In this document: positions 1 to 62,900 of the stretch, in pieces | Position numbering within the stretch: position 1 is the stretch's first letter | Layout of the letters: every line of letters begins with the position of its first letter | Source: Eledone cirrhosa | Lineage: Eukaryota | Reading direction: 5' to 3' | Assembly: GCA_964016885.1 (NCBI GenBank) | Contig: OZ024756.1 | Coordinates: 6,076,001-6,140,000 of the forward strand | Length of the DNA: 64,000 nucleotides | Made by a program: the position numbers and the translations under genes | The notes under the pieces: generated by a model | Databases searched by the model: none | What the model saw: the letters and a program-made list of their open reading frames with translations, nothing else | What the model was told of the DNA's origin: nothing

Positions 1-960
1 CAACTCATCAGCAATATTTACCTATCTACCGGCCTTTCTGGAGAATCTTAAAAGCACATATCGTTATATGCTTTTTCTATGAAAACTAGTAGTGGGCAGA
101 CCAATTTGCATACAGTGTGAGTACGTACCGGTTCAACGGAGACGATAAAAACAAATAACGAAACGAAATTAAATTTCGTTTCGTTTGTAACTCACTTTTG
201 TATGACTGACGCTTAAACACTTAAGTTAAAAATGTACATCTACATATGTATACTGAAATACTAGTATACCGGTTTGTCTGTGTGTTTACATACAGAATAG
301 CTGGATACTCACAGTAAAGTAACCAGTGAAAGACTTGGTACATCTACATATGTATACGTGTATGTATTCATATGCATACTAGTATTTCAGTATACATATG
401 TAGATGTACATTTTTAACTTAAGTGTTTAAGCGTCAGTCATACAAAAGTGAGTTACAAACGAAACGAAATTTAATTTCGTTTCGTTATTTGTTTTTATCG
501 TCTCCGTTGAACCGGTACGTACTCACATTCTATGCAAATTGGTCTGCCCACTACTAATTTTCATAGAAAAAGCATATAACGATATGTGCTTTTACGATTC
601 TCCAGAAAGTCCGGTAGATAGGTAAATATTGCTGATGAGTTGTAACAACAACGAAACTAGTTCAATATTCCTTGTCTGGCTTTCCGGGGAATAGAGGAAA
701 TGTGTTTCCTCAAAAACCAGTATGACTCTAAAAACCGGTTTGTCTGTGTGTTTACATACAGAATAGCTGGATACTCACAGTAAAGTAACCAGTGAAAGAC
801 TTGGTACATCTACATATGTATACGTGTATGTATTCATATGCATACTAGTATTTCGGTATACATATGTAGATGTACATTTTTAACTTAAGTGTTTAAGCGT
901 CAGTCATACAAAAGTGAGTTACAAACGAAACGAAATTTAATTTCGTTTCGTTATTTGTTT
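1..960 (+). mobile_element. Penelope-like/retrozyme-like non-coding element, family A (466-bp partial tandem plus inverted copy)
   Basis: 1-267 is the reverse complement of 376-642; 268-~493 recurs at 734-960 (period 466 bp); contains a hammerhead at 625-669; ends in (TA)n; left end runs off the window. Confidence 0.8.
625..669 (+). ncRNA. Minimal type I hammerhead ribozyme (family A)
   Basis: aatattg-CTGATGA-gttg(taacaa)caac-GAAA-ctag-TT-caatatt: 7-bp stem I, intact core, palindromic stem III. Confidence 0.85.
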
Positions 961-1177
961 ATATATATATATATATATATATATATATATATATATATAT
1001 ATATATATATATATAAATATTACAAGAGAAGTAGATAGATGTAGGTAGGTATACGCAAATACATACATGTATATATATATACATGTATAAATATATATAT
1101 ATATATACATATATATATATATATATATATATATATATATATATATATATATATATATATATGTATATATATATCAC

Positions 1178-1445
1178 AGAAATATAGAGAATCAGTGTTG
1201 CGACGAATGGAATTTATTGGACATATTACAATCGTTTCTCTCGCGACCAGCTCGAGCTTCCATAGAAACAACTGCTTCGTAGAATCAAGACGTATCTGAG
1301 GACCTTGCGATATTCAGAGTCAAGTTCGATCATCACATCGATCGTGCCTCAAGCTAGTCGTCAGAGAAACGATTGTTATATGTCCAATAAATTCCATTCG
1401 TCGCAACATTGATTCTCTTTTTTCAATTGAACCCGGGATAAACTT
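1178..1445. mobile_element. Fold-back element in (TA)n, family B
   Basis: ~1187-1240 is inverted relative to ~1362-1418; CTGACGA on the minus strand at the arm end, no GAAA seen; tail ttgaacccgggataaac resembles ~28708-28726. Confidence 0.55.
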
Positions 1446-1512
1446 TATATATATATATATATATATATATATATATATATATATATATAATATATATATA
1501 TATATATATATA

Positions 1513-1872
1513 TGTAGGAGATGATTTTTATTGTAGTACAATAAAGCAATGCAGATATCGGATAAGTAGCACTCTACAGTTTGTAGGACTGAAGTATAAA
1601 TAATATATAAGATCAAAAGATGGTTAAAAGAGTTCCATGTATTTTATTATGCGCATTTCAAAAACAAATATCATCATCGTGAATAGTGCAGTTTTAAATC
1701 AACATATGTTGATTTAAAACTGCACTATTCACAAGTGTGTTTTAACCTTCATATCATGTCTCCCTATTTTATCTGACGAAAACGCAAATGTTATTGCATG
1801 ATGATATTTGTTTTTGAAATGCGCATAATAAAATACATGGAACTCTTTTAACCATCTTTTGATCTTATATAT
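1513..1872. mobile_element. Fold-back hammerhead element, family C
   Basis: Palindrome centred on caacatatgttg (~1700-1711); near-identical copies at 53660-54090 and 58340-59440; flanked by (TA)n. Confidence 0.8.
1765..1835 (+). ncRNA. Type I hammerhead ribozyme (family C)
   Basis: tattttat-CTGACGA-long AU-rich stem II-GAAA-tgcgca-TA-ataaaata. Confidence 0.85.
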
Positions 1873-1970
1873 TATATATATACATATATATATATATATA
1901 TACATATATATATATATATATATATATACCATATATTGATAAATGGAAACTATATTTATAAAACCATATT

Positions 1971-2036
1971 TATATGATTATACATATTTCAAGGGAAACC
2001 AAGACAAATTATGGTGCGCTTTCATCAGATAAAATA
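1971..2036 (-). ncRNA. Hammerhead ribozyme, diverged (family D)
   Basis: Minus strand tattttat-CTGATGA-aagcgcacca...tggtttccctt-GAAA-tatgta-TA; homologous to 42380-42440. Confidence 0.65.
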
Positions 2037-59440: not shown

Positions 59441-60004
59441 ATATATATATATATATATATATATATATATATATATATATATATATATATATATATATAT
59501 CATAGTTTAGGTGAAAAAACATACTTCTTGATTACAACATTCCAAGTCTCTTGAATCTCCGACTTCCCCTCTCTTCACACCGTCGCCATCTTTAATTTTA
59601 CATTCAGTTAAATCAATTACACAAATCTTCTTCCATATTTTCTGTAATCGTTATCAAATCTATATTCATTAAATTACAGTGACTTGGTTTTCACTGAGTA
59701 TCGATCTCTCTTAGGACTACTATTGGGATTTCTGCATTGTTCTTGTTGATATTGTTGTTCTTGTTCAATAAGACACATTTGTAAAATATAGCTAAGATTG
59801 TCAATCAGATAGAGAGATAGATATGTGTATAGATAGGTACTTAGTTTTATAGATATATATGAAAATAAATAAATATATATATATATATATATATATATAT
59901 ATATATTTACACCCCCCCCCCATTTATATATATATGGGGGGGGGTGTATATATGTGTGTGCATTACAACGCTGAAGCTACATCAACGTCACGGGGATATT
60001 CCCT

Positions 60005-60340
60005 GACCACCACCATCAGTACTACTACCACTACTATTACTATTACTACTACCACCACCATCACTACCACCACCATCACTACTACTACTACTACTACTAC
60101 TACTACTACTACTACTACTACTATTACCAGTACTATTACTATTACTACTACCACTACCACCACCATCAGTACTACTACTACTAATACTACTGCTACCACC
60201 ACTACTATTACTATTAACACTACTATTACCACTACTACTACTACCACTACTACTACTACTACTACTACTACTACTACTACTACTACTACTACTACTACTA
60301 CTACTACTACTACTACTACCACCACCACCACCACCATCAC
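60005..60340 (+). repeat. (ACT/ACC/ATT)n trinucleotide tract
   Basis: Source of the poly-T and poly-V pseudo-ORFs; similar tract at 50170-50255. Confidence 0.9.
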
Positions 60341-61989
60341 TGTTGCTAGTGTTGTTACCATTATTACTAAAAGGAACACTTGTGTAAATAAATTCAATCT
60401 GTTTAGCTATTCTAAATCAAGTATCATGTGACATCCCTAACACTACAACATAAGGAATGGTTTATATATAACATATAACAAAATAAACAACAACAATATA
60501 TAATAAATGAGATGTAGACATCAAATTGTGGGCTTTAATCGGCAATAAATTCCATTTTTTCTTACTATTTTTTTATTTTATTTAACTCTGGTATCAACAT
60601 TTCTCTATAATCGATAAATAGAACATCTTTGAGTGTGATAGAAAATGTGAATATTACTTCTGAAAATATTTAGCATGTCCTTTATAATCAATGCCTTCTA
60701 ATAAATACAAATGTCCGTATTACTGACACTGTGATGTTATACTCAAGGAATCGATGTATGAGTGTATGGTTCCGTAATTCCTGATAAAGTCGTAGGGGGC
60801 CCCGTATTGACACACTGGCGTTTTGGAGGAATGTTAGGCCTAGTGGAGCCCATCCAACTCCAGATATTATAACTGGCGGAGCCTATCCCACTCCAGGCCT
60901 GAGTACAGCAGATTTCTTCCAGTGAAAGTTAAAAAGAGCGAGAGAGGAACAATTAAAAAGAGATATAGAGAAACAATTGACATCAGTACTAGACTGGTAC
61001 TTTTCTTATTGGCCTCGAAAGGATGAAATCCAAAGTTGACCTCGGAGAGATTTGAACTCAGAAAGCGGAGAGTCGGAATGACTATCATAAAGCATTCTAT
61101 CAGACGTTCTACTGACTCTGCCAATAGCCCGCCAATGATGAATCGATAGATTCACTTTAAGCGTTGAGAATTTTTAACTTCCAATTTTCTTCTTTTTTTT
61201 CAGAAGATGTGTTTAGATCTCTCTAGTTTTTTTCCTGTTGTTATGCTTAGGTGGTTGATTTAATCCATTACCTGGATTAGCATCACCTGCTCTCTTGGAA
61301 TCTATTGTTCTGATTCTTCAAACCAGGTCACTAATATTAAGGTACCTTATTCCACTTATCTCACCAACACCAAAAGTGCTGAGACGGGACATAGTCACTG
61401 CTCTAAACTCTCTGATTAAATAGTGGAAAATTTACAGAAGTTTGTGAGAGATTACTGTCTTCCTGGATATAACGCTAAATAAATATAATTCTCTGCTGTA
61501 TCTCATCTGGGAATGTAATCGTAATGAATAATCTCGGAAATTGGAGTGATACAATACAGGGTTGAAATAGAAACACAGAAGAGAATATCAGAGAAAGGAA
61601 TGTAAAAATCTTAAATGAAAACAATACACGGGAAAAACAAGAAGACGGAAATAATTCAAAGAAAACAAGGAGAAACTAGGTATTTTTAATGTCGAAATAT
61701 AAAATTGCTGGGATTTGTGTAATATGAGGAAAGAAATATATATTGACAGTCGTTTCTATTATATACACAATGCCAGGAGTTTGGATAAAAAGGAAAAGTA
61801 TTTAAATCGGCCCAAATACTTGACTGATATATTATTTTATCGCCACTGTAAGTATGAAAGGCAAAGCTAACCACGGTAGGACTTGAACTCAGCATGTAAA
61901 GGGCCATAACACTATGCTGCAAAGCATTTTGTCCAACACTCTTCCGATACTGCCGATTCAACAACATCACCGTCCTTAAAAATTATATT

Positions 61990-62470
61990 AATAACTGTTT
62001 CTACTTTAGGTACAAGGCCAGCAATTACCCAGTGCATTACTGGTAATTTATTTTATCGACCCCGTAAGGATGAAAGGCAAAGTCAACCTCGGCGGGATTT
62101 GAACTCAGATTGTAAAGGGACGTAACTATGTTGGAAAGCATGGCGTCCGACCCTCTACCGATACTGCCAATCCACCGCAATAAGCTGATTTTATATATAT
62201 CTATATATATAACAAAAATAAAAAAGCTGAAGTTACATAAATCGTTTAATCATTATAATTATTTTCACTCTTCTCAAATGGCGGTGGACTGTCAGTATCG
62301 GTAGAGGGTCGAACGTCATGCTTTGACGCATAGAGTAACGGCCCTTGCCATTCTGAGTTCAAATCCAGCCAAGGTTAACTTTGCCTTTCATCCTTACCGG
62401 GTCGATAAAATAAAGTACCAGTATTGTGCTGGGTTATTGCTGGCCTTGTGCCAGTAGTAGAAACAATTAT
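61990..62470. mobile_element. Head-to-head inverted pair of tRNA-derived SINEs
   Basis: Minus copy 61990-62178, plus copy 62279-62470; more minus copies at 60985-61135, 61740-61975 and 63050-63235. Confidence 0.85.
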
Positions 62471-62852
62471 AATTATTTTCACTCTTCGGAATATATATAT
62501 ATATGGTGAGAAGCAGGCGAAACTCCAGAGTAACGGGACTCACTATTTACCCTTAATTTAGTAAAATGAATACTTAAGCTCTGCTTCGGTATTGAGTACT
62601 CTTTTTCCCTCGGCCATCAAGTCATACCAAACACACACACACACACACACATATATATATATATATATATATATATATATATATATATATATATATATAT
62701 ATATGTATGTATGTGTGTGTTTATGTGTCTGTGTGTGTTTATGTATCAATGTATGTATATATATATATATATATATATATATATATATATATAAGGAAAA
62801 AAGATGAAATCCAAAGTGCAACTTGAATCTTTTTTTTTAAATATATTTATTT

Positions 62853-62900
62853 GGTTCCTTTACCGGTTTCGCAGTTCTTGTGCTTTTCAAAAGTAGAACC
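62853..62900 (-). ncRNA. Hammerhead with U3-A8 core variant at the apex of a fold-back (62793-62960)
   Basis: Minus strand ggttctactt-TTGAAAA-gca(caagaac)tgc-GAAA-ccgg-TA-aaggaacc. Confidence 0.7.

Follow-up and report, generated by a model that had tools for sequence, protein, structure and literature searches.

We analysed a 64,000-nucleotide stretch of the genome of the cephalopod Eledone cirrhosa (assembly GCA_964016885.1, contig OZ024756.1, positions 6,076,001 to 6,140,000 of the forward strand; hereafter the window), which is crowded with hammerhead ribozyme motifs set among (TA)n tracts. The results indicate, with a probability that we put at about 0.88, that most of these motifs are hammerheads in the pseudo-long terminal repeat (pLTR) ends of 5'-truncated Penelope-like elements (PLEs), placed back to back in (TA)n and likely generated by two-ended priming.

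An initial sequence-only reading of the window had reported more than 20 hammerheads in about 10 families, and both figures agree with our tally of 24 complete motifs (family members added by homology included), accompanied by several half motifs and spread over 17 insertions and 10 family groups, A to J, or 13 when subfamilies are counted. All ten positions cited in that reading carry a type I motif, with cores at 632, 1773, 5837, 12677, 42388, 53903 and 55887 on the plus strand and at 6212, 21097 and 62884-62890 on the minus strand; the CUGANGA, GAAA and UH core segments meet at a three-way junction with an open stem I. The excess of motifs is real: a strict type I descriptor matched 10 loci in the window versus a mean of 0.03 in 100 local dinucleotide shuffles, and a refined descriptor matched 14 versus 0.05 in 20 shuffles, while CTGANGA by itself occurred 37 times versus 17.7 +/- 3.8. 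One of the 24 motifs crosses the left edge of the window, two are mutated in the core (56427 and 57381) and several have damaged stems; self-cleavage by the window hammerheads is thus far a prediction from sequence. The window is 67% AT with 220 (TA)6+ tracts, and (TA)n adjoins most element ends. Seven insertions carry a complete motif on both arms, and in all seven the two motifs are divergent. Rfam returned no hammerhead in the window at the gathering score and, among the best 150 of 522 matches, one HH9 match below the threshold (614-685); its plastid and microRNA matches were discarded as products of fold-backs and TA repeats.

The stems differ between families and keep pairing over a conserved core, as had been proposed, and covariation is seen across the subfamilies of the A/B superfamily. 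Among 12 representatives, 98.5% of 204 cells were paired, compared with 36-65% in slid controls, and 6 of the 17 pairs were altered on both sides. The 18 variants of stem II (each seen at least twice) pair at a mean of 8.7 out of 10 positions versus 6.9 with shuffled partners, a shuffle that does not control for relatedness; position 4 of this stem is unpaired in every one of them. Family C has a C at core position 4, and the core of family J is a U3-A8 variant (UUGAAAA), identical and intact in 10 of the 18 copies examined and retained with weakened stems in the window copy. PLE hammerhead variants are reportedly the subject of Lunse et al. 2017.

The link to PLEs, also suggested from the letters, is borne out by the continuity of ribozyme arms with open reading frames (ORFs) for a PLE reverse transcriptase (RT) and GIY-YIG-type endonuclease in 5 of the 10 family groups. 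Judged from this continuity, together with protein motifs and tblastn, what is seen of families A, B, C, E and I derives from the ends of protein-coding PLEs truncated on the 5' side, so that their short pieces represent truncated copies of coding elements, and the description of the ensemble as mostly non-coding was misleading. A pLTR, an inverted 5'-truncated copy and a one-sided tail, all features of PLEs, are present. A near full-length family A copy (L034) reads, in order, upstream repeat with ribozyme, 90-bp tail, ORF, 3' untranslated region (UTR), second ribozyme and tail-less end, which places the tail between the upstream repeat and the ORF; its ORF is frameshifted and its second ribozyme is mutated in the core. 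Another copy (L228) has an open RT-endonuclease frame of 801 residues. The family A ORF shows RW, DKT, YRDD, CxCX5C, CxxC and CxH motifs, with a single Cys between the GIY and YIG equivalents. Family C runs on, at 95-97% identity, into an A-like ORF through a 3' UTR of about 2 kb, and both the RT and the endonuclease domains are linked (DKT, CxCX5C, CxxC, CxH). In family B an A-type endonuclease lies about 1.2 kb upstream in several of 30 loci, with endonuclease-side motifs only, and in family I only the endonuclease part is linked. Family E is linked to both domains. Its CX4CxxC linker, which fits the CX2-5CxxC form of the Neptune/Nematis clade, and a pair of Cys between GIY and YIG make it Neptune- or Nematis-like, either clade fitting its motifs.

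The motifs that define Hydra-clade PLEs (RW, DKT, CxCX5C and CxxC/CxH, with CCHH absent) all occur in family A and in part in B and C, and all three families insert into (TA)n. Families A, B and C are accordingly placed in the Hydra clade by their motifs, and family I probably belongs there too; a Neptune label considered for family A was dropped after its motifs had been compared with the clade definition. Several such families are present, with a protein identity of about 40-55% and units of at least 3.3 kb. A search for homologues of the ORFs gave 25 matches at 29-42% identity, 13 of them with PF26215 and one an Argonauta hians protein (37% identity).

The ends of the insertions show how the arms are arranged. 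Among 70 tail-bearing family A arms, 66 stop within 4 nt of a fixed site, Y, against (TA)n, and 4 continue into the ORF; tail-less arms end at a second site, X, likewise against (TA)n. Apparent long-arm positions and solo arms among the tail-bearing loci proved to be breaks in the alignment and were left out of account. The targeting of (TA)n put forward earlier was thus right. The 26 divergent family A pairs comprise 24 X+Y, 2 X+X and no Y+Y combinations, and pairs outside the loci selected by their tail were X+Y in 7 of 7. Among the first 100 pattern matches listed, neighbours no more than 600 bp apart were divergent in 14 cases, convergent in none and on the same strand in 2, and those up to 5.5 kb apart in 27, 4 and 6 cases, respectively.

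At the other end, 33 of 82 arms begin between -130 and -118 relative to the predicted cleavage site, and across the genome the base immediately before -124 is foreign to the element in 4,240 arms. A role of ribozyme cleavage in fixing the ends is not supported, with only 1 of the 82 ends within 5 nt of the predicted site and 74 of 76 arms continuing past it. The position of the 5' ends 124 nt upstream of the site, and not at it, suggests that the RNA had probably not been cleaved when it was copied. Its 5' end probably lies at the -124 point, the alternatives being pausing of the RT or TA microhomology. A cap-derived extra G at the junction was also looked for and was not shown: most cases reduce to microhomology, a partner-templated base or a short duplication, and about 5 are unexplained. 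By hand count the junction base was G in 46, A in 14 and T in 40 of 100 matches listed, and no extra G was present in about 11 copies joined directly to (TA)n.

These observations may be accommodated in the following model. The endonuclease of the element would cut both strands of (TA)n, and the two DNA ends would prime the RT at two internal start sites, one at X and one at Y. The complementary DNAs (cDNAs) would end prematurely, in many cases at -124, the likely 5' end of the RNA, and be joined head to head, the template RNA being either uncleaved or re-ligated. Two-ended priming is inferred here from the in vitro behaviour of an anole PLE, for which two RT start sites, cutting and extension of both strands and the use of uncleaved RNA have been shown (PMC11167929). 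The ribozymes would cleave as dimers through a palindromic stem III, and only in direct-repeat contexts, namely full-length copies and tandem family F arrays. Stem III reads as palindromic in families A, B, C, D, F, I and J, a published signature of dimer-dependent cleavage (PMC4209133). In a read-through transcript of a fold-back, the ribozymes would instead be locked in a long hairpin: when three fold-backs were folded, 66-68 of 68 ribozyme nucleotides paired inside the helix between the arms, which suggests that fold-back copies are likely inert and that most genomic ribozyme copies are likely passengers.

Several points weigh against this account. The X+Y count comes mostly from tail-selected loci, and families B, C, D and E, sorted by crude classifiers, are mixed and include X+X and Y+Y pairs, so the pairing rule applies to family A only. 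As many as 27 of 82 arms reach beyond -200; a simple linear RNA starting at -124 cannot template these, and a strand jump, a circle or a tandem transcript is needed. No significant match to the PLE ORFs was returned by Pfam or by a sequence search of the PDB, so the clade assignments rest on motifs and not on a tree. Among the loci compared, and with no search aimed at one, a partner ORF was found for none of families D, G, H and J, nor was an individual link found among these loci for subfamilies B2, B3 and C2. Folded on their own, the motifs gain only modestly in stability over shuffled sequences (z from +0.14 to -2.7). In many A/B ribozymes the base of stem II is A-U or G-U, not G-C, which may lower activity, as may C4 in the family C ribozymes.

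The short islands might instead be independent, non-autonomous, retrozyme-like elements, transcribed and copied as small circles, as the sequence-only reading proposed. We consider this unlikely for the ensemble, even though it survives better than the other alternatives. The fixed start of thousands of family A arms could mean that short units are transcribed on their own, and families D, G, H and J are so far without coding partners; yet the arms of A, B, C, E and I run into ORFs and vary in length as 5' truncations do, and opposite-strand ribozyme pairs are unable to dimerise in cis. The proposal does fit family F, the only window family seen in tandem direct arrays. Elsewhere in the genome these arrays have a period of 466-467 bp with one type I hammerhead per unit, the monomer is highly structured (folding z = -9.9), and no PLE protein was found upstream of 61 matches. 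Family F is thus likely a non-LTR retrozyme that would form 466-nt circles, and adds a probable cephalopod member to that group. It resembles the retrozymes described by Cervera and de la Pena 2020 (PMC7229834) and Li et al. 2026 (bioRxiv 10.64898/2026.07.22.740005) in its tandem non-coding repeats, single type I hammerhead per unit, low GC content and strong folding, although its 466-bp unit lies just above the quoted range of 150-450 bp. According to the same sources, tandem retrozymes are found in axolotl, where 126,247 motifs stem from two tandem families, as well as in coral and mussel. A second canonical-looking hammerhead family is possibly a further tandem retrozyme; two of its copies lie just beyond the left edge of the window (L038:8777 and 9201), in direct orientation and separated by 424 bp, and another is at L153:686.

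It is very improbable that the fold-backs are DNA transposons, either miniature inverted-repeat transposable elements (MITEs) or foldback elements, or palindromes formed after insertion, with incidental ribozymes. TA flanks and near-perfect inverted arms do recall Tc1-type MITEs, and one MITE-like element lies at about 55265-55855, but the two ends of the fold-backs differ by a fixed tail, arm length and centre vary from copy to copy in place of symmetric terminal inverted repeats of fixed length, and in A, B, C, E and I the arms belong to retroelement ends that run into RT ORFs. Chance resemblance within AT-rich, low-complexity sequence, to which the weak relaxed matches at 55887, 21097 and 17742 and the empty Rfam result might point, can practically be dismissed for the motifs taken together in view of the shuffles, a genome-wide count of 78,819 versus 0 for the reversed pattern and the compensatory stem changes.

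This genome-wide count refers to exact matches of the intact A/B-superfamily ribozyme pattern; a 30-mer of the family A tail has 10,557 exact matches. In a sample of fifty 10-kb stretches at round coordinates (500 kb of the 3.0-Gb genome), the refined descriptor gave 28 matches versus 0, 0, 1 and 0 in four shuffles, which scales to about 1.7 x 10^5 motifs, or one per 18 kb. Since the matches are clumped and the descriptor misses J-type cores, we estimate the total at 1-2.5 x 10^5. The density of one ribozyme per 3 kb suggested earlier therefore holds inside the window and does not extend to the genome: the window has about 4 times the motif density of the sample and 2.6 times its TA tracts, and the four 10-kb stretches flanking it contain 4 descriptor matches. 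The sample also contains hammerhead types not seen in the window (L045, L047, L138, L147, L156, L159, L160 and L161), so the family diversity of the genome exceeds the ten groups found here. Family A copies on different chromosomes are 92-100% identical (40 scored), which suggests recent activity.

A bolder proposition, to which we give somewhat less than even odds, is that this load of 1-2.5 x 10^5 motifs is among the largest and densest reported in animals and stems from a still-active, multi-family Hydra-clade radiation. The insertions would follow a rule that has not been described before, in which each one uses both RT starts, one per DNA end, on capped, uncleaved RNA from -124, with strand transfer or circles building the longer pLTRs. 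If this were true, tens of thousands of near-perfect fold-backs would be a major source of double-stranded RNA in an animal that edits its RNA heavily.

The kind of element is already known. Hydra-clade PLEs inserted in (TA)n and carrying canonical hammerheads were described by Craig et al. 2021 (PMC8557442) and include Hydra-1_Obim of Octopus bimaculoides, and the suggestion that the system may be undescribed thus applies only to its scale and family diversity, which look unreported. The literature searched contained no paper reporting hammerheads on this scale in a cephalopod (most subscription papers, Repbase and Dfam lay outside the search), and the passages searched of a 2026 Octopus vulgaris repeat annotation mention neither hammerhead, ribozyme nor Hydra. 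Hydra-1_Obim shares with the present elements the C-terminal endonuclease, the RW, DKT, CxCX5C, CxxC and CxH motifs, the lack of CCHH, (TA)n targeting, a canonical hammerhead near the 3' end and an inverted 5'-truncated copy. It is, however, the one octopus family listed there, of 2.5 kb and with no pLTR seen, and its ribozyme stems are unlike ours, whereas in Eledone there are several families with units of at least 3.3 kb and tens of thousands of copies, a long stem II with a conserved C.Y mismatch, and tails of 60-170 bp compared with 30-40 bp in the published Hydra PLEs.

Cervera and de la Pena 2014 (PMC4209133) describe minimal PLE hammerheads, opposite-strand pairs 100-700 bp apart and the U3-A8 variant. 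The motifs here are similarly dispersed and derived from truncated PLEs, with many families per genome, a bulge after A9 in some families, a palindromic stem III and the same variant, but most of them keep a short helix III, unlike those PLE hammerheads, and the counts given there are 2,000-9,000 per genome compared with an estimated 10^5 or more. In Poseidon PAc of Anolis (Frangieh et al. 2024, PMC11167929), likewise, RT starts at two sites that bound a tail where pLTR and ORF meet, both strands are extended, and no ends fall at the point of ribozyme cleavage. PAc belongs to a different clade, and its ORF starts inside the ribozyme, whereas that of family A starts after the tail; for PAc no difference between strands was seen in the use of the start sites, whereas family A pairs nearly always combine one X with one Y.

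The interest of the system lies in its scale and in the data that it offers: tens of thousands of young insertions, with their two fixed end sites and clustered 5' ends, form a natural record against which ideas on how PLE insertions arise can be tested. The nearly intact Hydra-clade ORFs could be used to set up a second in vitro system for PLEs. The ribozyme ends of PLEs are easily hidden by low-complexity masking.

The insertions with hammerhead sequences in the window are as follows.

1-960: family F; the 466-bp tandem repeat in about 1.5 units, with one further copy in inverse orientation; hammerheads at 632 (+) and 11 (-), the latter continuing beyond the left edge.
1186-1445: family G fold-back; complete motif at 1296 (+), in which stem II is long, left arm with the 3' half.
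1514-1872: family A fold-back; ribozyme at 1773 (+), left arm with the tail and the 3' half of the motif only.
1933-2108 (-): B-superfamily arm (B3); core at 2028, damaged stem I.
5133-6085: family C fold-back; ribozymes at 5210 (-) and 5837 (+), core position 4 = C, tail of about 170 bp on the right arm.
6106-6765: family D fold-back; ribozymes at 6212 (-) and 6574 (+), the second with a deletion of stem III.
7035-7385 (-): B-like arm; core at 7134.
12411-12925: family E fold-back with a right-hand tail; ribozymes at 12600 (-) and 12677 (+).
17700-17825 (+): C-related solo arm (C2); degenerate core at 17742.
20876-22345: family I fold-back; the left arm (-) is long and contains the ribozyme at 21097 and, at 21792-22215, a broken remnant of the endonuclease ORF; the right arm is short and has the motif's 3' half.
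42066-42486: family B fold-back with a left-hand tail; ribozymes at 42254 (-) and 42388 (+).
46455-46700 (-): B2 remnant; 5' half of the motif at 46537.
53664-54090: family A fold-back; ribozymes at 53761 (-) and 53903 (+), arms 98.5% identical, 90-bp tail at 54001-54090.
55865-55980 (+): solo arm of family H; stem I is weak, and the core is at 55887.
56400-56535 (+): B2 arm; core at 56427, one core base mutated.
57225-57572: family B partial fold-back; mutated core at 57381 (+), tail on the right.
58346-59439: long-armed family A fold-back with a right-hand tail; ribozymes at 58438 (-) and 59250 (+).
62795-63025: family J fold-back; U3-A8 variant hammerhead at about 62855-62894 (-).

Other repeats share the (TA)n setting. 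Family K forms fold-backs in (TA)n at 17442-17590, 48622-48840, 54212-54423 and 56560-56724, with a tail of about 85 bp. In its window copies the hammerhead is reduced to the 3' half, which has a GUC site and a helix III that is long and stable; longer copies elsewhere in the genome (L143, L250) have the 5' half as well, with a C3- or U3-A8 core, and most copies end inside loop II. Family M (57769-58330) is also flanked by TA; it has a conserved CUGAUGA some 20 nt inside one end, with GAAA upstream, in permuted order, and was rejected as a hammerhead, having neither a clean hammerhead fold nor an Rfam match. A short TA-flanked family at 28980-29030 was likewise not counted as a ribozyme, the CTGATGA not being conserved in other copies; it makes divergent pairs elsewhere in the genome (L044, L296). 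The remnant of a family-E-type endonuclease C-terminus lies at 8367-8484 (74% identity over 38 residues).

The TA-flanked element at about 55265-55855, whose terminal inverted repeats are short and whose internal inverted arms are long, is presumably a MITE-like element of the Tc1/mariner type. An unclassified family of TA-flanked repeats, which share a fixed start and reach 600 bp in length, occurs at 24063-24390, 28065-28555, 39106-39700 and 44790-45400. By eye, the region at about 38000-38510 looks like the 3' end of a long interspersed nuclear element (LINE) ORF with a restriction-like endonuclease, which we take to be of the Dong/R4 type, and minisatellites were recognized at 32190-34090 (units of about 30 bp), 30900-31340 (about 120 bp) and 24480-24990 (about 14 bp). 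One family of short interspersed nuclear elements (SINEs), which resembles octopus SINEs, is present in many copies, some as inverted pairs, at 14880-17310, 40472-40650, 47350-47740, 61990-62480 and other places.

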